A stretch of DNA of 63,420 nt, the filler included, from Folioceros fuciformis (Eukaryota): assembly GCA_049999805.1 (NCBI GenBank). It is 10 parts of 10 records of this genome, joined end to end, with 100 filler letters (N's around TTAATTAATTAA, not from the genome) between each part and the next. Parts side by side here need not be neighbours in the genome. Positions count along the whole stretch, not along the records: positions 34,058 to 39,723 come from JBNGIO010000949.1; 9 more parts are not named here. One strand, 5' to 3'. A model generated the notes under the pieces. It worked only from the letters and a program-made list of their open reading frames with translations, was not told the DNA's origin and did not search any database. Positions 432-61,087 of the stretch are shown piece after piece (the stretch's first letter is position 1; every line of letters starts with the position of its first letter). Position numbers and translations under genes: made by a program.

Positions 432-2720
432 ATGGCATCCTCAGAAAACGTCATGTTCAATATCGAGAAGTTAGATGGTACTAACTTCCCGTTCTGGAAA
501 GAACAAGTGTATAATGTCTAGTGCAAAAGAAGACGTGTTCTTCAATGAGACCAAGATGCACAAGAAGCCTACTCCAACTGTGGAAGTGCGACAGGTGGTC
601 TTTCAAGAAGATGGATTTGACCGTCCCGCACAGGTTAAACGTCGTGATGTGCAGGAACAAGTTTCTCCACTTGTATAAGAGGAGAGAGTGCAACCAGCTC
701 TGGTCGAGGCACCAGTGCTTCGTAGGTCAGGAAGGATCTCACGTTTTCCTGACAAGTATATTGCATCTCTTGATTATGTCATGCTGACGGATTGTGAGGA
801 GCCCTCTTGTTACCAAGAGGCCATGTCAGTGACTGACAAGTGGGAGAAGGCAATGCAGTCGCAGATGGATTCGCTCCACAAGAACCAAACTTAGGAGTCG
901 GTTCGGTTGCCTAAGGGCAAGAAGGCGTTGCCATGCAAATGGGTGTATAAGATGAAGGACATACCCCATTATGGCAAACCCAAGTACAAGGCACGATTGG
1001 TTGCTAAGGGTTTTAAGCAATAGCAAGGTATTGACTTTGATGACATTTTCTCGCCAGTTGTTAAAATGACCACCTTGCGATGTGTCCTTGGTCTGGTTGC
1101 GAGGCACGATATGGAACTTATCCAGATGGATGTGAAGTCGATATTTCTGCATAGTAATCTCCAGGAAGAGGTATACATGCAGCAAGCAGAGGGTTTCATT
1201 GAGAAGGGCAAAGAGAGTCTGGTGTGCAGGTTAAAGAAGAGCCTTTATGGTTGAAGCAGGCACCCAAGGAGTGGCATTTCAAATTCCACTCGTTTATGCT
1301 TTCTCAAGGCTACAAACGTAGAAATGAGGATCATTGCCTCTATACAAAGCAAGCTAAGGATGAAAGCTTGCTCATTCTGGTCCTCTATGTGGATGATATG
1401 CTAATTGCTAGGACTAATAGTGATGAGATTTCAGCGTTGAAGTCAAAGTTGAATGGTCGCTTTGACATGACAAACTTGGGAGAGGCAAGCCATATTCTTG
1501 GCATGCGTATTCGTCGAGACAGACAAAAGCATTTGCTTTACTTGTCTCAAACTGAATACATAAACAAGGTGCTTCAACGTTTCAATATGGAGAAGGGGAA
1601 GGTATTGAGTACTCCGTTGCCTCCATATGTGAAACTTTCGAGCAAAGATTGCCCAAGCTCTACGGAGGACAAAGCTGAAATGGAGAAGGTTCCATACTCA
1701 TTTGCTATGGGGAGTTTGATGTATGCAATGATTGCTACGCGTCCTGACATTGCATTTGCAGTGGGAGTGGTTAGCAGGTTTATGTCAAACCCTGGCAGGA
1801 AGCATTGGGAGGCAGTGAAAGGAGTTATGAGGTACTTGAATGGTACAAAAGCTTTGTGCATATGTTTTGGTGGTGAAGATGCGTTTGTCATGGGAGATAT
1901 GGATGCTGATTATGCAGGGGATACAGACAAAAGGAGGTCCACATCAGGTTATGTCTTCATGTGCACTGGAGGGGCAGTCTCATGGCGATCGCGTTTGCAA
2001 TCGTGCATAACTCTATCTACCACAAAGGCCGAGTATGTTGCAGCGACTGAGGCATGCAAGGAAGCCATGGGGCTTGCTCGTCTAGTGAGAGATTTGGGAA
2101 TCAAGGTTAAGCTGCCAGTGTTGCACTATGATAGCCAGAGTGCTATCCAATTGGCGAAGAATGCAGTGTTTCATGCAAAGACCAAACATGTGGAAGTGAA
2201 GTATCACTTCATTCGAGAGATGTTGGAAGACAAGAGGGTACAACTTGTCAAAGTTTACACCAGTCAGAACCCTGTCGAAATTCTTACCAAGGAGCTCTGT
2301 ACGGAGCAATTCGCACAAGCTTGGACACCCATGGGCCTCAAGTAGACCACTCTCCTATAAAGGTAAATTGTCCTTTAGGTGGGAGATTGTAGGGTATTAA
2401 AGCCCAATGTGCTTAGACTAATGTGTTTAGTGTAAGATTAGTGTCTAGTTAAGTATCATTTGTTTAGATTAGCTTAAGCTAATCTGTAGGAAGCTTCTTG
2501 CGTAGCTTCTTATGCGCTTCTTGTGAAGCTTCCTAGAGAGCTCTTATAGAGGGTATAAATACCCCCTTGAGCTCCCTTGCATATTGAGACCTTTTGTGAG
2601 AGCGTGAATCTCTTTCTCTTCTCCTCCTTGCCTCATCCTCTCCTTTCCTTTACCATGCAGCTCCTTTAGCGATCCTTCACCTTCCCTCCATCTCATAAGC
2701 CTTGCACAAATCCACTCACA
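432..2720 (+). mobile_element. Degenerate, internally deleted Ty1/copia LTR retrotransposon (gag N-terminus, integrase tail, RT, RNase H, PPT, 3' LTR)
   Basis: ATG at 432 gives MASSENVMFNIEKLDGTNFPFWKEQ (copia gag N-terminus). RT motifs CKWVYKMK, YKARLVAKGF, LYVDDML, TRPDIAFAV and RNase H motifs DADYAGD, STT(K)AEY, KTKHVEVKYHFIRE follow. In-frame stops at 892 and 1021 and a frameshift near 1250. PPT AGGTGGGAGAT at 2377-2387 is followed by TGT. Right end approximate. Confidence 0.92.
2388..2720 (+). repeat. Probable 3' LTR of the copia element
   Basis: Starts TG immediately after the PPT and has TATAAATA near 2554. The ...CACA end near 2720 is a guess; no 5' LTR is available for comparison. 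Confidence 0.55.
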
Positions 2721-15096: not shown

Positions 15097-15196
15097 NNNN
15101 NNNNNNNNNNNNNNNNNNNNNNNNNNNNNNNNNNNNNNNNTTAATTAATTAANNNNNNNNNNNNNNNNNNNNNNNNNNNNNNNNNNNNNNNNNNNN
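15097..15196. other. Artificial contig linker
   Basis: N44-TTAATTAATTAA-N44. Confidence 0.98.
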
Positions 15197-20736: not shown

Positions 20737-20836
20737 NNNNNNNNNNNNNNNNNNNNNNNNNNNNNNNNNNNNNNNNNNNNTTAATTAATTAANNNNNNNN
20801 NNNNNNNNNNNNNNNNNNNNNNNNNNNNNNNNNNNN
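20737..20836. other. Artificial contig linker
   Basis: N44-TTAATTAATTAA-N44. Confidence 0.98.
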
Positions 20837-23121: not shown

Positions 23122-23221
23122 NNNNNNNNNNNNNNNNNNNNNNNNNNNNNNNNNNNNNNNNNNNNTTAATTAATTAANNNNNNNNNNNNNNNNNNNNNNN
23201 NNNNNNNNNNNNNNNNNNNNN
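23122..23221. other. Artificial contig linker
   Basis: N44-TTAATTAATTAA-N44. Confidence 0.98.
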
Positions 23222-29144: not shown

Positions 29145-30012
29145 GTGGAACAATGGAGTGGTGTGGGCATAAAGTAGAGGAGTGTTGGGCGTGGAACAAT
29201 GGAGTGGTGTGGGCATAGAGTAGAGAATTGTCGAGCGGCGTGGAACAATGGAGTGGTGTGGGCATAGAGTAGAGAAATGTCGAGTAATAGGCACAATGGA
29301 GTGGTGCGGGTGTAGAGTACAGGAATGTGGAGTGATGAGTACAATGAAGTGGTGTGGGTGTAGAGTAGAGGAATGTGGAGCGATGAGCACAATGGAGTGG
29401 TGTGGGGCGAAGAATAGAGGAATGTGGAGTAATGGGCACAATGAAGTGGTATGGGCATAGAGTAGGGGAATGTGGAGCGACGGCCACAATGGAGTGGTAT
29501 GGGGCATAGAATAGAGGAATGTGGAGCGATGAGCACAATAAAGTGGTGTGGGCGTAGAGTAGAGGAATGTGGAGCGACGAGCACAATGGAGTGGTGTGAG
29601 GCGAAGAATAGAGAAATGTGGAGTGATGGGCACAATGAAGTGTGGGCGTAGAGTAGGGGAATATGGAGCGACGGCCACAATGGAGTGGTATGGGGTGTAG
29701 AATAGAGGAATGTGGAGCTATGGGCACAATGAATTGGTGTGGGCGTAGAGTAGAGGAATGTGGAGCGATGGACACAATGGAGTGGTGTGGGGCGTAGAAC
29801 AAAGGAATGTGGAGCGATGGGCATAATCAAGTGGAGTGGGCATAGAGTAGAGGAATGTGGAGCACTAGACACAATAGAGTAGTGTGGGGCGTAGACTAGA
29901 GAAATGTGGAGCAACGGGCATAATGAAGTGGTGTGGGGCGTAGAATAGAGAAATGTGGAACGACGAGCATAGTGGAGTGGTGTTGGGCGTAAAATAGAGG
30001 GATGTGGAGCAA
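29145..30012. repeat. Purine-rich 48/49-bp satellite, about 18 copies, with a 97-bp dimeric higher-order structure
   Basis: Unit approximately GCACAATG(A/G)AGTGGTGTGG(G)GCGTAGA(G/A)TAGAGGAATGTGGAGCGAYG. Copies start at 29342, 29390, 29439, 29487, 29536, 29584, 29633 and onward. Confidence 0.95.
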
Positions 30013-31498: not shown

Positions 31499-31598
31499 NN
31501 NNNNNNNNNNNNNNNNNNNNNNNNNNNNNNNNNNNNNNNNNNTTAATTAATTAANNNNNNNNNNNNNNNNNNNNNNNNNNNNNNNNNNNNNNNNNNNN
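31499..31598. other. Artificial contig linker
   Basis: N44-TTAATTAATTAA-N44. Confidence 0.98.
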
Positions 31599-33957: not shown

Positions 33958-34057
33958 NNNNNNNNNNNNNNNNNNNNNNNNNNNNNNNNNNNNNNNNNNN
34001 NTTAATTAATTAANNNNNNNNNNNNNNNNNNNNNNNNNNNNNNNNNNNNNNNNNNNN
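33958..34057. other. Artificial contig linker
   Basis: N44-TTAATTAATTAA-N44. Confidence 0.98.
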
Positions 34058-36015
34058 CTCAAATACTCATAGCAGCCCAAGACCTAGGTGAACCAACATC
34101 CTACAAAGAAGCCATAAACTCACCAGAGAAGGAGCAATGGCAAGCAGCGATCAAATCAGAATTTGATTCCCTCATTGAGAACGAGACTTGGGAATTAGTT
34201 GATTTACCCCAAGGAAGGAGGCCGATTTCAAACAAATGGGTGTTCAAGAGGAAACTCAACCTTGATGGCAGCACAGCTAGGTTCAAAGCTAGACTAGTGG
34301 TGCGTGGATTCTCACAAAGAGAAGGGATAGACTACAATGAGACTTTCTCTCCTCTTGTACGTGCGTCATCATTAAGGACACTCATGGTTGTTGCTGCTCA
34401 CAAAGGTTACCACATCCACCAGATGGATGTACAAATAGCTTTCCTTAATGGCCTCCTTGAAGAAGAGGTATACATGATGCAGCCTGAAGGCTATATTGAT
34501 GCCAAGCACCCAAGCAAGGTTTGTAGGCTGAAGAAAACCCAGTATGGCCTCAAACAATCAAATCGTGGGTGGAACTTGAGGTTGCACACATACCTTGTAA
34601 GGAGAGGGTTTAAGCAATCAGATGCTGATGGCAGTGTCTATGTATACAAGAAGCAAGGGCAGACTGCCTACCTAGCGGTGTACGTTGATGACACAATCAT
34701 TTTTGGATCCGATGATGGCATGATAAAAGAGGTAAAAGGCATCCTGTCATCGGAATTCAAAATGACAGATTTGGGCCCTTGCAAATTCTTCCTAGGTGTC
34801 CAAGCATTCATGAACCGAGTGACGGGAAGCATATTTCTCCACTAGCAGCATTATGTGAACAGGTTACTTGAGAAGCTCAACATGCAAAATGCGAAACCAG
34901 CAGCAACTCCAGCTGTAGTGGGGGCTACCTTGACACAAGATCAATGTCCCAAGACAATTGCTGAGCAGAAGGAGATGGAGAATATACCATACAGAGTTCT
35001 TGTAGGGTGTCTGCTATGGCTGAGTGGCTGGACCAGACCAGATATTGCCCATGCAACATCAATTGCCTCACAATTCTTAGCTAACCCTGGACAGCAGCAT
35101 TGGATAGCTGCTAAGCGTGTCCTTAGGTACTTGAAAGGCACATCTGACCTAGGACTTTTGTATAGCAAGAAAGGGGTTGATGGAAGGACCTGGATGGAGT
35201 GCAAGACGGACTTTGATTGGGCTGGTGATAAGGACTCACGTAGGTCCATATCTGCATATTGTATTAAGGTGTGTGGTGGCCTCGTTAGCTGGTTTTCAAA
35301 GAAGCAAACAATGGTTGCACTATCGTCTACGGAGGCCGAATATGCAGCAGCCACAACTGCAGCTCAAGAAGTTATGCACTTACGGAATTTCCTGGAAACT
35401 CTAGGTTACCAGCAACAGGAGCCAACACCAATGTATTGCGACAATCAGTCTGCCATTGCCATAGCCAGGAATCCTATCTCGCATGCTCGTACGAGACATG
35501 TGGAGGTGAAACAGCATTTCATAAGAAATGCGATTGCCATCAAGATAATCAGTCTCAGTTACATCCCCACAAATGACAATACAGTTGATTTATTGACCAA
35601 GGCTCTAGCAAAAGAAAAACATAACTTGCATGTTGTTGGACTTGGCTTGAGACACAGGTCTGACATTGAAGCCGAGAAGAAGGAAGATGAAGTGATCAAA
35701 TAAATCGGTGGCGGCTGACGGCTACGACTAAGTGGGGGTGTGAAGTGAAGCCTAGGAATAGTCTAGCATCAGCTAGTCAACAATTAGGTTAAGCTAAATG
35801 AGCTTTAGCTAGGGCTAGATAGCCTAATGTGAAAAGACACATAAACACAAAAAATACCTAACCGCCATGGCGTATGGCACAAGACACAAGACCTTGCTTT
35901 GTTATTACTACTACTACACACGATCATTCTCAATGCAAAAAGATGGCTCTGATTTTTGTATAGCAGAACTTCGTCAACTACATGGATTGTCTTCATCACC
36001 AACAGCCTATTAACA
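34058..36015 (+). mobile_element. Ty1/copia retrotransposon 3' part (RT, RNase H, PPT, 3' LTR), nearly intact
   Basis: Motifs EPTSYKEA, NETWELVDLP, KWVFKRK, FKARLVVRGF, AFLNG, VYVDD, TRPDIA, D(F)DWAGD, SSTEAEY, RTRHVEVKQHFIR. One in-frame TAG at 34843. PPT AAGTGGGGG near 35730, then TG...TAACA at about 35739-36015. Confidence 0.93.
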
Positions 36016-36949
36016 ATTCAGCGGGCCACTGCTTTGATTTGTGGGTTCACGATGTCATGAATCAACTACCCGTTGGTAGTTTTGGTGGAGTCTGCCGCCA
36101 GGAGCGCTGCTGCCGCTTCACTAGCTCCATGTTGTGCTGTGAATAGAGGTAGAGTCTGCCACGCTCTTCTGTTAGACATCGATATACCTCTCGCATCATT
36201 TGGACAGTCCACAACGTGGGATTGTCCCGGATTTTTGCCGAGGCAGCCTTGCCCCGAGCGCACTGCAGATGGGTCACCCAAAGTCTCGGATGATTGCCGT
36301 GGAGTTGATGGTCCAGGGAAACTAAAAAATTCCTAATTCCTAATTCCCACAACTCCAGAGGTCCCTTGCTACTGCTATCCATGGTGCAAAGTTGGGGTAG
36401 GAGCGTGTTTGAATTTGCTTTGCTTTGAGCCTCCATGTGTTGCCGACCTCAAGAAACTACCCTAGCGGAGGAGTCCTATGGGTTGAAGACAAGGGAGAAG
36501 TCCCTGAAGGCTTCAACGCACCGACTTTCGCATGAAGCATGGAGAGCATCGAGGTTGTGGAGAAAGCTAGAAAGTCACAAGGTTTTGGAAGACGGAGTGG
36601 AGCAAGAGATGAACAGAGGGAAAGCAAAGAGTCGAAATGAGGTTCTAGAGTGATGGCGGGAGGGAGAAAAAGTCGGGTGGAGCCTATTGGCTAGCGTACA
36701 CTAGCATAAAAATTTACACTTGAACGCACAATTACACCTACAACCATCCGGGACAGTTACGCCCCTGCCTTTTGCATGATGTCAAGGTACTGGATCTTGC
36801 ATGGATCATCCTTACTATCAGTCAGTTCATCCAGTGAGCGACCAGCAGTCTGACATGCCTTCTACTTCGAAGATCCTAGGCTGCCAAAAAAAGCCATTTA
36901 TTAGAAAAACCAAATTTTGTACTTACTCCGGATACGAGTCCAGTGGATC

Positions 36950-38300
36950 ATCGGAGTAATACTTCAATGATTACTTTTGGACTTGACACATGAAATCCTG
37001 CAAACCAGGTTTCGGGATCTTACATCAGTGTTTGTTCCAAGTAGTCCAAGGCCGCATTGTTTGTTGACAATCTAGCCCAGTGGTAATTATTGTCAATGGA
37101 AAGAAAGGCAAATGGCTCCATCAGTTGTATAGAAAACTTCCCCTTGCTTGAGTAGTACATTCTGAATGGCTCGACTACTCTGTACCAAAACGCCATAGCA
37201 CATGCATATTCTTCACAAGATAGTGGGGGAGCATGTTCCCATTGCCAACATGAATGTGTAGGGAGCCTTGCATTCAACATCTGGGCATGTGTCTTTGCTA
37301 GGTCCCTAAGAACAAAGCCGCCACCTCCGGATCACCGGGGGAGTCATTAGGGTGATGATTGGGGACTGCTTTCCCTCCTGACTCTGATCCAGTGAATTTT
37401 GAGGGAGTGAGGTTAGAAGAGGCATCCACGAATGCCAGCGATTGTGGCGTGTTGCTCTTTGGAAGTTGCTATCTGGGGATTGAACAAGGATGCCTGTAAG
37501 GCCAATCGTGTGTTCATCTTGTCTATCAATTAAAGCCATTGGTGATTGGCAAACTAGTTTGAAGAAATGGTGACACAAAGTGCTTCATGTCCACCAGTGG
37601 GTTGGTTTTATGTTCAAGTTGTCCACCTAGGGGAGTAACTTGAATAGTGGAGCATAATGCAACTAGCAATCCATTGCGATGAGATTCATTTAGGGCTTAG
37701 GTTTGGCCCACCCCTTAGCTTTTTCTCTCTCTACATGCAGTTGTGGGGTTGCTATTGTTAATACAAGTTCCCATCTAGCACGTTGTCCTGTCGGGGGGCA
37801 CCGCATTGACACCCATGATGTTGTTTGAAATGTTATGTTCTTAATGGCTAGGAAGTGTAGGTTTCTTCTGTATAAGGATCATCCATATACTTCACTTAGA
37901 GCCAACCTTATTTTCACTAGGAGGGAATAGGTTTGTGTCGCTAATGTGGTTGTTGCGGATCCCACTAGGGTTTTGATTTCCAAGCACGTTGTCATCAACC
38001 TCCCTAGATGGACGGCGAAGGGTTGTGCAAGCGCCAAAGTCCATAAGTATTCTCATGTGTAAGACAGGGATATTTTCATTCCCCTTGCTCTTGAGACTCA
38101 TAGGGCCATGCACTAGGCCCATGAGGGCAACCTTGGTATCAAGGGACTTTTCAAGGTTCATCAAGGAGTGTGCCAAGGTTTATCAAAGTCATAGAAATGA
38201 TGTTCTCCCTCTTTCATATGTGGTGGTCTTCTTTCGACAATTTGTATCCATTACTTTGCAAAGAGCATTGACTAACATGGTTTTTAGAACAACAACAAGC
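36950..38300 (-). mobile_element. Highly decayed L1-type LINE ORF2 remnant
   Basis: In order on the minus strand: YQGCPHGP (about 38115-38140), VKYMDD (about 37875-37895), LIDKMNTRL, KIHW, GGGGFVLRDLAKTHAQMLNAR. Many stops. Confidence 0.55.
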
Positions 38301-38705
38301 GTAAATCAAGCCACTTCTTCGGTACTGGTGGTAGGTAGGCCTTTTGTTATTCCACATCATCACATTTTGGGAACAGTAGGTAGTTTTTGAGCAAGATGTT
38401 CAAAGGGGCTAGTACCCTTTTTCGTCTTTGGCCCTGATCTAGTTGTTCTTACAATCTTTGAAGTAGATGGGACTTTGCATCTCTTTTTCAATGATAAAAA
38501 ATAATCCTTATAAAATACAACATGGGTGTAACAATAATGTGAATTGATGACCCTTGGGTTTTTTTTCGGTTGTTACCATTTAGTGGGGCTTTTTTTATCA
38601 TTTTAATTCTCAATATATGTGACATTGCTAATTTCAATAAAAAAATATCATATCATAGTTTTAATACCTATTATATTTATGTATCCCAATTTAATATTAT
38701 CATAC

Positions 38706-38916
38706 CCAAATGGTTAAAAACGTTGTTGAAGCATGATGATTCTCTAAAATAGATATATCATTGTATCGTAATGCGAGTGGGTCATAAGTTGTAATAAGAA
38801 ATGAATTTGTTAATCCTGGATGATCAACGTCATGGCACAATGCAGCAAGCACAGTAGAAAATATTTCAACAGAATTAAGCATGTGTCGAGCATCACAAAT
38901 TGTTAATAGCATGTAC
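38706..38916 (-). CDS. Single internal exon of a class I 3',5'-cyclic nucleotide phosphodiesterase (PDEase_I; CAPE-like)
   Basis: Open frame YMLLTICDARHMLNSVEIFSTVLAALCHDVDHPGLTNSFLITTYDPLALRYNDISILENHHASTTFLTIW contains the HDxDHPGxxN and YND.S.LENHH signatures. Flanked by acceptor tttctaaaccAG and donor GTatga. Confidence 0.88.
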
Positions 38917-39723
38917 CTGGTTTAGAAAATATCAATGTTTAATGAACATATCAACTCTTCTTTTGGCTTAATTATATCATACTTGGATGCAAAGTAGTAT
39001 TCAAAATTCATCACGGTAGTATGCTAATATTATGGAGGAGGAGAAAAAGATTGAAACACTTATAATGAAGAAATGCAAGGAATGTACAACATTGAGTTCT
39101 ACGCTTGTGTTACGTAGGAAAGGTCATTTTTTCCCCTGATTTGTTACATGACCATGTGTGGGTGTACTAGGGAAGAGGTGGGGGGAGGAAACCCGACCCG
39201 ATGAAGAACTTGGGTAAAAGGCCGATAAATAGGTTGGTGGGTAGGGGACGAGCCTTCTAGGAAGAACTCCATTGGTGGGGTGTAGCGAAGACACACAACC
39301 CCTCCACAATGCCACTCTTGCCTTGCTTGTTCTTTTTCCCCTGGTTAGAGACTAAGTCATATAGGCCTCTCTTCCTTATATTTTGCTAGGGTTTTCAGCT
39401 AGATCACCACCAAAGTCTAAGGAGAATTAGGTAGCTAGGTGTCCAAACACCAAGAACAAGAACCATATGTGAATCACCTCTTAAGACGAAGGAAAAATTA
39501 GGGCCTTCCCATAGAAATTGAAGGTCAAAGTGTGGCTAGTTCTAGAGCCTAGAAAATAAAATAGAGATAGACTGACTCCCAAAGTGAATGGCTCCCTCCT
39601 CCTACAGGCTCACCTAATCTTATAGGAGCCTCTCTCTCTCTCTGACTTCACCTCTCTCTAACTTGAGAAATATTATTTTAATAGGACCACTGGCCTAGCC
39701 GGCTATCACCAGCCACTTATTTA

Positions 39724-39823
39724 NNNNNNNNNNNNNNNNNNNNNNNNNNNNNNNNNNNNNNNNNNNNTTAATTAATTAANNNNNNNNNNNNNNNNNNNNN
39801 NNNNNNNNNNNNNNNNNNNNNNN
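39724..39823. other. Artificial contig linker
   Basis: N44-TTAATTAATTAA-N44. Confidence 0.98.
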
Positions 39824-41696: not shown

Positions 41697-43703
41697 ATGG
41701 CTCGCTCTGGGTGGCGGGTTGGCCGCCTCCTGCCTCTTTCCTCCCGCGTCGCGAGCCTCTTGCGAACTTTCAATTCATCTTCGTCCATCGAAGAAGTTGT
41801 ATCCCACCAGCCGTGCGTGGGGAGTGAAAGGCATTCTGGAATTGGCACCTTTCGCATTTCGATTTCGGAGTACCTCGACTCCGGCAGGGCCACCTTGATT
41901 GAGCGAATTCGCTCTTGTGCTGGCAGCGTCCGCGGGATTCACTGTACTTCGCTCAGAACAGGGTCATGTCCATCTTCCATTGTGCTGTTAAACCCTAAAC
42001 TCTGCCGTCTTGTCCTCTCGTGCATTGGCAGATTTGCTGCATGGGTTCCGAGTTCTCATTTGCCCGAGATTTTTCACTACAGGGATGCGGATCCAGACTC
42101 CAGGGCTGAAGGGGGAGAAGGCACTCTCAAAATTGACAAGGTTCTGGAGCTTCTTCGATCTCAGCCCGTTGTGCCTAGGTCTGGCACCCCGGGGCCAGTC
42201 CCTCGCCCTAGAAAGAACCAAGCTTTTCAAAGGTCGAAGCACATAGGAGCTGTCTCCAATCTGGTGTTGATGCTGGAAGGCGCAAATACAACTGGTGACA
42301 TCGAGAGAATTCTCAACGATAAGGCCCTTGAGTTGCTCGGGCAGTCGGATTGGCCATGGTTTCCTTTGTTCGACGCTTTGCAGAAGGGTCCGAAACCACA
42401 TTTGGTGATGGAGGTACTTTGAAGGCTGTGTGTCGTATTCATGATTTGGTTTCAGTTTTAGGGTACGTGTCTGCAATTAGGAGCATCTGTCTCACCATGT
42501 CACTTCTCCCCGCAGGTCTTCAACTGGAGGAGGAGTCAGCTGAACAGGAAACCTGATGCCAAGGAATATTCCAAGATGATTTCCTGTGCTGGAAAATTGA
42601 ACCAGCTGGACACTGCTGAACTGTTGTTCGAAGAACTTAAGAAGCATGACATCCCGCATACAGCTGCCACCTACAATTCTCTTATATCTGCGTATGGGAG
42701 AAATGATAAGCCGGAAAAGGCTGTTGCTTTGTTCAAGGAGATGATGGGAACAGAGAATGCTCAACCGACGCTCGTCACATACAACACCCTCATCTCCATG
42801 TACAGCAGAGTCAGCGTTGTAGACGAGATGGATAAAGTATTCCAGGCATGTAAGGCTGCAGGTTTCAGTCCAGACAAACATACCTATAATGCTCTAATCT
42901 GGGGTTTCATGAGGGCTGGGCAGTATGCCAAGATGGAAGCAGTGTACCAAGAGTTGGTCGACGGTGAATTCAGACCTGACGTCATCACGTTCAATGCCCT
43001 CTTCTTAGCTTATTCCAGGATGGAGGCTGTGGACAAGCTGGAGGAGACATTTAAGTCTATGCAAAAGACGGGAATTCCCATAAATGCTATGGTCGGAGAG
43101 CTGTTGGTAGAGGCGTACGGTAAGAAAGGGGACTACGCAAAGATGGAAGGAATAATTAGGATTATGGATGACACCCCAAATGTGGAGTACGGTGCCCGAG
43201 TGTACAGTCTACAGATAGAGGCTTATGCAGCAGGGGGGCGTTTGGATGACATGGAAAGATCGCTTGACAAAATGCTTTTAGCAAGAAAGCTCTTCGCCGG
43301 AGCCAAAACGCTGGACGCCGTTATCACGGCTTTTTCAAATAATCGTTCCTATGACAGACTGCAAAAGGCAGTAGACAGAGTGAAGGTAACTGGGTGGGTC
43401 ATGTCCAGCACAACCTTCAATACATTGATATTTGAGTTTGGCAGGGGTGGCCTGCTCAGCAAGATGGAGGATGCCTTTGAGCAGATGAAAGCCTCAGGTG
43501 TTGAGCTCCACCCTAAAACCTTCCAGATTATGTACGACGCCTTCGAAAGAGTGAAGGATGGAAGTGGAATGGAAAGGACTCGACAGAGGATGACAGAAGC
43601 AGGATTCGATCCTTCGTCAGACTTAGACTTACAAGTGGTCCGTGCTTACAGCGATGAGGAAATATTTGGAGGTTGGCAGAGGCCTATTAGGACCACCAGC
43701 TGA
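41697..43703 (+). CDS. P-class pentatricopeptide repeat protein with probable organellar (mitochondrial-like) targeting peptide
   Basis: N-terminus MARSGWRVGRLLPLSSRVASLLRTF. An intron at about 42415-42516 joins LVME|VFNWRR. Tandem 35-aa PPR motifs TYNSLISAYGR, TYNTLISMYSR, TYNALIWGFMR, TFNALFLAYSR, TFNTLIFEFGR. No E/DYW domain. Start codon not certain. Confidence 0.88.
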
Positions 43704-43950: not shown

Positions 43951-44050
43951 NNNNNNNNNNNNNNNNNNNNNNNNNNNNNNNNNNNNNNNNNNNNTTAATT
44001 AATTAANNNNNNNNNNNNNNNNNNNNNNNNNNNNNNNNNNNNNNNNNNNN
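43951..44050. other. Artificial contig linker
   Basis: N44-TTAATTAATTAA-N44. Confidence 0.98.
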
Positions 44051-54727: not shown

Positions 54728-54827
54728 NNNNNNNNNNNNNNNNNNNNNNNNNNNNNNNNNNNNNNNNNNNNTTAATTAATTAANNNNNNNNNNNNNNNNN
54801 NNNNNNNNNNNNNNNNNNNNNNNNNNN
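54728..54827. other. Artificial contig linker
   Basis: N44-TTAATTAATTAA-N44. Confidence 0.98.
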
Positions 54828-60987: not shown

Positions 60988-61087
60988 NNNNNNNNNNNNN
61001 NNNNNNNNNNNNNNNNNNNNNNNNNNNNNNNTTAATTAATTAANNNNNNNNNNNNNNNNNNNNNNNNNNNNNNNNNNNNNNNNNNNN
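60988..61087. other. Artificial contig linker
   Basis: N44-TTAATTAATTAA-N44. Confidence 0.98.

Follow-up and report, generated by a model that had tools for sequence, protein, structure and literature searches.

In this work we identified an exon of CAPE (COMBINED adenylyl cyclase with phosphodiesterase) in a 63,420-nucleotide stretch of DNA from the hornwort Folioceros fuciformis, hereafter the window. On homology and splice structure it is a genuine CAPE exon, orthologous in this hornwort, and it probably belongs to a live CAPE gene with very long introns filled with transposable elements (TEs), where repeats have broken the assembly. What is new is one further hornwort copy of a known gene: as hornwort CAPE has already been published for A. 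agrestis, another hornwort ortholog adds little. CAPE carries an N-terminal phosphodiesterase (PDE) domain that degrades the cAMP made by a C-terminal class III cyclase domain. To our knowledge, no other land-plant enzyme for the synthesis and degradation of cAMP has been established, and the occurrence of CAPE follows that of motile sperm.

The window is divided into ten segments by nine identical spacers, whose central 12-mer, TTAATTAATTAA, is its own reverse complement and contains a stop in every frame (all six). This structure indicates that the joints are artificial and thus that the window consists of ten separate contigs of about 2–15 kb each. Because it is a chain of unlinked contigs, gene-neighbourhood arguments drawn across the spacers are invalid. 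The layout of the window and of the exon is as follows.

15097-15196, 20737-20836, 23122-23221, 31499-31598, 33958-34057, 39724-39823, 43951-44050, 54728-54827 and 60988-61087: artificial spacers, N44-TTAATTAATTAA-N44
34058-39723: contig carrying the exon, 5666 bp, between the left spacer at 33958..34057 and the right spacer at 39724..39823
38706..38916, minus strand: CAPE exon, coding for a portion of the class I PDE catalytic core in which the HDVDHPG metal-binding motif lies (profile, homology, splice sites)
38917..38918, minus strand: acceptor AG, after the pyrimidine-rich TTTTCTAAACC (same intron position and phase in relatives)
38704..38705, minus strand: donor GT, in TGG/GTATGA (same position in relatives)
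38917..39723, minus strand: 5' flank, putative intron, 807 nt to the contig end, free of CAPE exons
34058..38705, minus strand: 3' flank, putative intron, 4648 nt to the contig end, free of CAPE exons

The initial annotation had reported that no PDE exon lies in the 0.8 kb upstream or the 4.6 kb downstream of this one; we found none either, but these distances (807 and 4648 nt) are those to the contig ends. The genes of the other contigs encode a PPR protein, a MASE1 hybrid histidine kinase, a malectin-like kinase, an EDR1/CTR1-like protein, an RNase_T exonuclease and a GT47 protein. For EDR1/CTR1 and Malectin_like, consecutive Pfam coordinates are found in abutting or overlapping ORF pieces (ORF pieces, not gene models), an arrangement consistent with the short introns previously described for the other genes of the window; the contrast that had been drawn between these introns and the surroundings of the exon nevertheless compares unlinked contigs. 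The PPR ORF (42462-43700, plus strand) is intronless and encodes a P-type protein of 413 aa, the best annotated relatives of which are 44–49% identical and come from mosses and Riccia, with Ceratodon at the top. No hornwort protein was among the matches in the protein search with this ORF, which tells us no more than that protein databases contain hardly any hornwort proteomes. Positions 29150-30010 of the window are occupied by a strongly G-skewed minisatellite (49-nt unit, 97-nt higher-order unit, ~18 copies, ~80% match), which contains long open frames on the minus strand with no Pfam match.

The CAPE exon is read on the minus strand from 38916 to 38706, and its 211 nt are made of one base, the G that finishes a codon interrupted by the intron, and then 70 stop-free codons. 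The frame that surrounds it extends from stop to stop over 38700..38921 (73 aa). Its translation, YMLLTICDARHMLNSVEIFSTVLAALCHDVDHPGLTNSFLITTYDPLALRYNDISILENHHASTTFLTIW, includes HDVDHPGLTN and YNDISILENHH, and corresponds to residues 85-154 of the A. agrestis CAPE (AaCAPE) plus the last base of codon 84. The intact 211-nt exon with AG/GT ends, no stops and both motifs complete that had been described from the sequence was thus seen in full. A six-residue extension of the homology beyond the acceptor, proposed by tblastn (DIF*TR against DVLHAT), was rejected as a chance match, as it holds a stop and, in the relatives, an intron occupies precisely this position.

The assignment to class I PDEs is secure. 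The exon matches the Pfam PDEase_I profile (PF00233) with an E-value of 1.9e-24 and 87.1 bits, for a cutoff of 24.8, which is far beyond chance, and the match spans profile positions 15-80 of 238 because a single exon is present. Among solved PDE structures, 151 distinct sequences match the exon (best E 4.8e-15), and HDVDHPG and NDxSxLENHH align without gaps with the PDE4 and PDE9 cores of these structures. The HD motif (H-D-x-x-H), in the form of HDVDHPG, and the downstream E-N-H-H segment, in the form of LENHH, are thus present in the exon and aligned to the motifs of the solved enzymes; that they act as metal ligands is established knowledge and is also stated in the available text of PMC8115329. 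Neither the upstream H-N-x-x-H motif nor the C-terminal two thirds of the PDE catalytic domain was found in the window by tblastn or with a CAPE profile; in relatives these parts are encoded by other exons, so that their absence reflects the limits of the contig and not a loss.

Within class I PDEs, the closest sequences are land-plant CAPEs. Searching longer proteins by word index, we obtained 42 matches among 52 candidates, the best relative being the A. agrestis CAPE (1240 aa, named "bifunctional..." or Phosphodiesterase), which is 91% identical to the exon. Such an identity, in a very conserved exon, would by itself most likely point to a hornwort other than A. agrestis. It is followed by P0303 (77%), Ceratopteris (71%), Cryptomeria (67%), the Marchantia CAPE (MpCAPE) and Riccia (both 64%), and Ginkgo models (61%). 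The CAPE domain set, PF00233 with PF00211 and PF26726, is present in the best matches, from A. agrestis, Marchantia and Riccia. P0303 was found among short ORFs: it is a 91-aa ORF that reads through the exon, from a 4.2-kb contig. An exhaustive HMMER search of 1.84 billion representatives yielded 8184 proteins at E<=1e-3, among which we found a single close relative, the protein of A. agrestis (E 2.4e-35, 90%). The top-scoring row of this search, P0043, was discarded as a close relative: it is a 3580-aa multi-repeat protein, with a score summed over 32 stretches at 33% identity. A maximum-likelihood tree built on the 70 columns has 4/29 well-supported inner branches and places the exon in no supported clade; along the tree path the nearest sequence is AaCAPE (0.094, with weak clade support), then P0303 (0.32). 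These identities, together with the intron positions and phase described below, bear out the earlier proposal of a CAPE-like gene.

The exon is also conserved where CAPE is conserved. Eleven other CAPE sequences share 27 invariant columns, and the exon keeps 27/27 of them, so that its earlier description as intact extends to residues that look constrained. It is identical to AaCAPE at 64/70 residues, including all motif residues, and the six substitutions (T/I, A/D, A/S, I/V, I/T and V/I) all fall in variable columns. The chance that six random changes would all miss the 27 invariant columns is (43/70)^6, or ~0.05. At positions 8 (D) and 56 (I), the exon shares its residue with other CAPEs where AaCAPE differs. 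Judged from 70 residues alone, these observations suggest that the exon is under constraint.

The exon architecture points in the same direction. The arrangement of ag, one base, 70 codons and gt is present in 5/5 related genomic loci (L001, L003, L004, L008 and L009, all metagenome contigs), so that every relative examined shares the length of the exon, its phase and the positions of its two introns. The read-through ORFs of our alignment (A1), predicted on genomic contigs from other plants, agree with this, losing their similarity to CAPE at these two points: 6/6 fragments read V, that is, the GT donor, right past the last exon residue, and the three that reach upstream (P0002, P0004 and P0005; 3/3) read R, that is, AG plus one base, just ahead of the first Y. 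One of these, P0002, is a genomic ORF identical to MpCAPE within the exon. As judged from this splice structure, the exon is native and is neither a processed copy nor a chance ORF. The 211-nt, same-phase architecture, found at 5/5 loci, makes the exon a usable marker for CAPE in fragmented assemblies.

No neighbouring exon accompanies it. With AaCAPE and MpCAPE as tblastn queries, the window contains no other CAPE or PDE exon: two of the ten HSPs obtained at E<=10 lie on the exon, and the other eight have E-values of at least 1.1. Likewise, when 2882 six-frame pieces were scanned with a profile built from 8 CAPE sequences, one matched (E 4e-43), the next best having an E-value of 1.2, and within the window neither tblastn nor the CAPE profile detected a cyclase exon. 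About 18 CAPE coding segments are expected, and one is present, on the exon contig as in the window. In the CAPE gene of L001, the preceding exon ends ~260 nt upstream of the homologous exon and the next one starts ~560 nt downstream. In CAPE, the upstream neighbour encodes ...YHNFRHACDVLHA and the downstream one SDENVDIL... The preceding exon of L001 is 96% identical to residues 62-84 of AaCAPE (23 aa), and with such conservation it would have been detected here if present. The exon-free flanks are thus at least 3 times (5') and at least 8 times (3') the length of the L001 introns.

These flanks contain repeats. Depth was taken from two DNA runs, X1 and X2, whose contigs were aligned to the exon contig; both come from a single sample, probably the source of the assembly. 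Together with the profile searches it gives the following picture.

34060..35700, plus strand (antisense to the exon): Ty1/copia pol fragment, RVT_2 and, in frame with it, a further ORF downstream; truncated at the end of the contig
36600-37650: unique part, depth ~11 (X1) and 9 (X2)
37650..38594: high-copy repeat with no Pfam match, summed depth in the hundreds to thousands
38595-39539: exon and its surroundings, single-copy, depth ~11 (X1) and 8-9 (X2)
39540-39723: very abundant repeat including a CT run, at the right end of the contig, summed depth ~1.2e5

The exon is therefore single-copy and boxed in by repeats. The repeat at 39540-39723 is also found in X6, a small unrelated run under the same species label. 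In the copia fragment, the RVT_2 match (34060-34842, plus strand, E 1.2e-68) covers positions 1-208 of the 244 of the profile; an in-frame stop lies at 34843-34845, after which the frame continues to 35700. Since the contig begins at position 1 of the reverse transcriptase profile, the gag-to-integrase part of the element must lie past the contig end, and the 3' flank, if it is an intron, would be several kilobases longer still. A second copia-type reverse transcriptase fragment is present on a different contig (window positions 1203-2342, plus strand); the two fragments are dissimilar in nucleotides, which implies at least two copia families in this genome. The flanks had been described as L1 and copia debris. 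The copia part of this description holds, on the strength of the RVT_2 match, but L1 was not confirmed: 0/44 ORF pieces of the contig (of at least 45 aa) match any retroelement family at E<=1, and four of the 44 have weak matches to unrelated families, below cutoffs (E 0.0045-0.1). The exon contig contains no structured RNA (0 Rfam matches at E<=0.1) and no noteworthy tandem repeats. The exon is not flanked by terminal repeats, whether inverted or direct, the sole inverted pair being 33 nt long at 73%, and neither the exon nor any other sequence of its contig has a second copy in the window. The presumed RNA run X4, which carries the same species label, gave two short pieces, 90–95% alike, on the repeat at 38083-38503 and none on the exon; this is no evidence on expression either way. 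In Marchantia, CAPE is antheridium-specific.

The base composition of the exon is unusual. Its GC content is 0.341 overall and 0.429, 0.371 and 0.214 at the three codon positions. The AT-rich third positions noted in the initial annotation are thus real, as GC3 ranges from 0.388 to 0.667 in the 15 other ORF pieces measured in the window. The surrounding contig is ordinary for the window, with values of 0.423, 0.445, 0.482, 0.453, 0.355 and 0.404 in 1-kb bins, and in the near flanks GC is 18% at 38595-38705 and 41% at 38917-39539. The AT-richness is confined to the exon and its near flank and does not extend across the region. In the homologous exon of the bryophyte-like loci GC3 is 0.371. The AaCAPE protein contains 0.307 of FYMINK and 0.179 of GARP residues, versus 0.229 and 0.248 in MpCAPE. 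Because AaCAPE is thus also rich in residues with AT-rich codons, the low GC seems to belong to hornwort CAPE as a gene and not to signal a special chromosome. The MASE1 hybrid histidine kinase gene of another contig (window 55163-59763, minus strand) is made of closely spaced ORF pieces for MASE1, HisKA, HATPase_c and Response_reg; unlike the CAPE exon, it is compact and has a high GC3 (0.64 in the MASE1 piece).

The model that we favour is that of a live CAPE gene. In this model, the orthologous exon encodes those helices of the class I PDE core on which the HD(V)DH metal-binding motif lies, and it would be bounded by introns much longer than those of its relative L001. The introns would have taken up repeats, including the copia element in antisense orientation, and these repeats would have broken the assembly and left the exon alone on a 5.7-kb contig. 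The remaining CAPE exons would then lie on other contigs, and the gene would be expressed and spliced; in the intact protein, the part encoded here would help to hydrolyse the cAMP made by the C-terminal cyclase. The identity of the exon, its intactness, the position and phase of its splice sites, its single-copy depth and its repeat-bearing flanks are direct observations. A live gene with TE-filled introns had been proposed from the start, and in this respect the proposal is partly supported, by an intact exon and by repeat-bearing flanks that extend well beyond the introns of the relative; its use of low GC3 as a chromosomal signature is weakened.

The exon could instead be a relic or pseudo-exon, the last recognisable piece of a TE-disrupted CAPE copy, or a partial duplicate, left intact by chance or by youth, while any functional gene would lie elsewhere. 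It stands alone on its contig, the flanking repeats and copia pol occupy the places where, by analogy with L001, neighbouring exons are expected within ~0.3–0.6 kb, and its identity to the known hornwort CAPE is only 91%, so that it could be a paralog if the organism were Anthoceros itself. We nevertheless regard this explanation as rather unlikely, since 70 AT-rich codons contain no stop or frameshift, both splice sites are kept along with the 27/27 invariant residues, positions 8 and 56 match other CAPEs, and the depth is that of a single copy. As for the 91% identity, genes on other contigs are also without close annotated relatives (49% at best for the PPR protein), which fits a proteome absent from databases. 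The single-copy depth bears equally on a gene fragment captured by a transposon, in the style of a Pack-MULE or a Helitron. Such a capture could account for an exon lying between two high-copy repeats, but the exon and the ~0.9 kb around it are not multi-copy, no terminal inverted or direct repeats were found apart from the 33-nt, 73% inverted pair, and the homology stops exactly at conserved splice sites with native intron signals, all of which makes it very improbable. Contamination by the PDE of a fungus, an animal or a protist can be practically dismissed. All that speaks for it is that class I PDEs are widespread in these groups; the exon has CAPE-specific intron positions, common to bryophyte genomic loci, and its nearest sequences are land-plant CAPEs (91%, 77% and 71%), while the non-plant PDEs compared are 42–66% identical over shorter spans. 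With the A. agrestis CAPE at 91% and other land-plant CAPEs at 77% or less, the grouping with fungal or animal PDEs envisaged as a check of the first assignment does not apply, and the exon is not a contaminant.

Sex and accessory chromosomes rich in repeats have been reported from hornworts, and a live CAPE on a non-recombining U/V sex chromosome or accessory chromosome, as the initial annotation had proposed, would explain both TE-filled introns and low GC3. This hypothesis is compatible with the model of a live gene in long introns, and both could hold together. It is in line with the GC3 of the exon (0.21 versus 0.39–0.67 elsewhere), with the repeat-laden flanks, and with the description of CAPE as specific to the male organ in Marchantia (PMC5159850). 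Set against these are the ordinary GC content of the whole contig and the bias of the AaCAPE protein towards AT-coded residues. A. agrestis, moreover, is monoicous. In Marchantia, Riccia and Ceratopteris, CAPE lies on contigs of 24.6, 54.8 and 181.7 Mb, which are large records, and the available text of a study of hornwort sex and accessory chromosomes (PMC12409103) contains no mention of CAPE, sperm or phosphodiesterase, nor of GC content, intron or transposable. That the AT-richness is only local, and that AaCAPE shares the AT bias, takes some weight from the hypothesis, and we consider it improbable. Equally doubtful is a broader scenario in which the sperm-motility gene CAPE of this hornwort would have ended up, by relocation or by engulfment, in a region rich in repeats and poor in recombination (a sex-linked or accessory chromosome, for instance), its introns growing ~10-fold by TE insertion and its GC3 drifting very low while its catalytic residues remained under selection. 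The gene that we favour, a live CAPE, appears to have unusually repeat-filled introns and a very low GC3, and in a completed assembly it would offer a locus at which to ask whether hornwort genes for male function gather in regions of low recombination.

In the available text of PMC8115329 (Yamamoto et al. 2021), CAPE is described from streptophytes with motile sperm, hornworts included, and the AaCAPE cDNA was cloned from A. agrestis, so that hornworts have an expressed CAPE. This protein (P0001, 1240 aa; UniRef A0A8D5GBY9) is the closest to our exon, with 64/70 identical residues and an AT-biased composition in line with the low GC3 of the exon; it is known from a complete cDNA that comprises the PDE, the membrane-spanning and the cyclase parts, whereas here we have one exon. 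MpCAPE (P0006, 1610 aa) shares with the exon the same boundaries, as seen in P0002, and the same catalytic motif, at 64% identity. According to Kasahara et al. 2016 (PMC5159850), MpCAPE is active both as an adenylyl cyclase and as a PDE and is expressed specifically in the antheridium, and in Marchantia CAPE and PKA regulatory subunits are described as controlling sperm motility (2024 PNAS, PMC11032487); these activities and this expression are those of MpCAPE. The animal class I PDEs (PDE4B/4D and PDE9A; e.g. 3o0j and 3n3z), compared by sequence, align without gaps over the HDVDHPG...YND.S.LENHH core (E ~1e-14), but they lack the fusion to a cyclase and are far more remote in sequence. For gene structure, the useful references are the complete CAPE genes carried by long bryophyte-like contigs from environmental metagenomes (L001, L002, L007 and L008), in which the homologous exon has 211 nt with the same phase and splice positions. 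The L001 gene (9054-18907), like the three others, extends over ~9.9 kb with 18 tblastn segments to MpCAPE, covers PDE and cyclase, and has no gap larger than ~1.2 kb. Compared with loci of this type, the F. fuciformis exon differs in its GC3 (0.214 versus 0.371) and in its surroundings, with at least 807 and at least 4648 exon-free nucleotides where the neighbouring exons of L001 lie at ~260 and ~560 nt.
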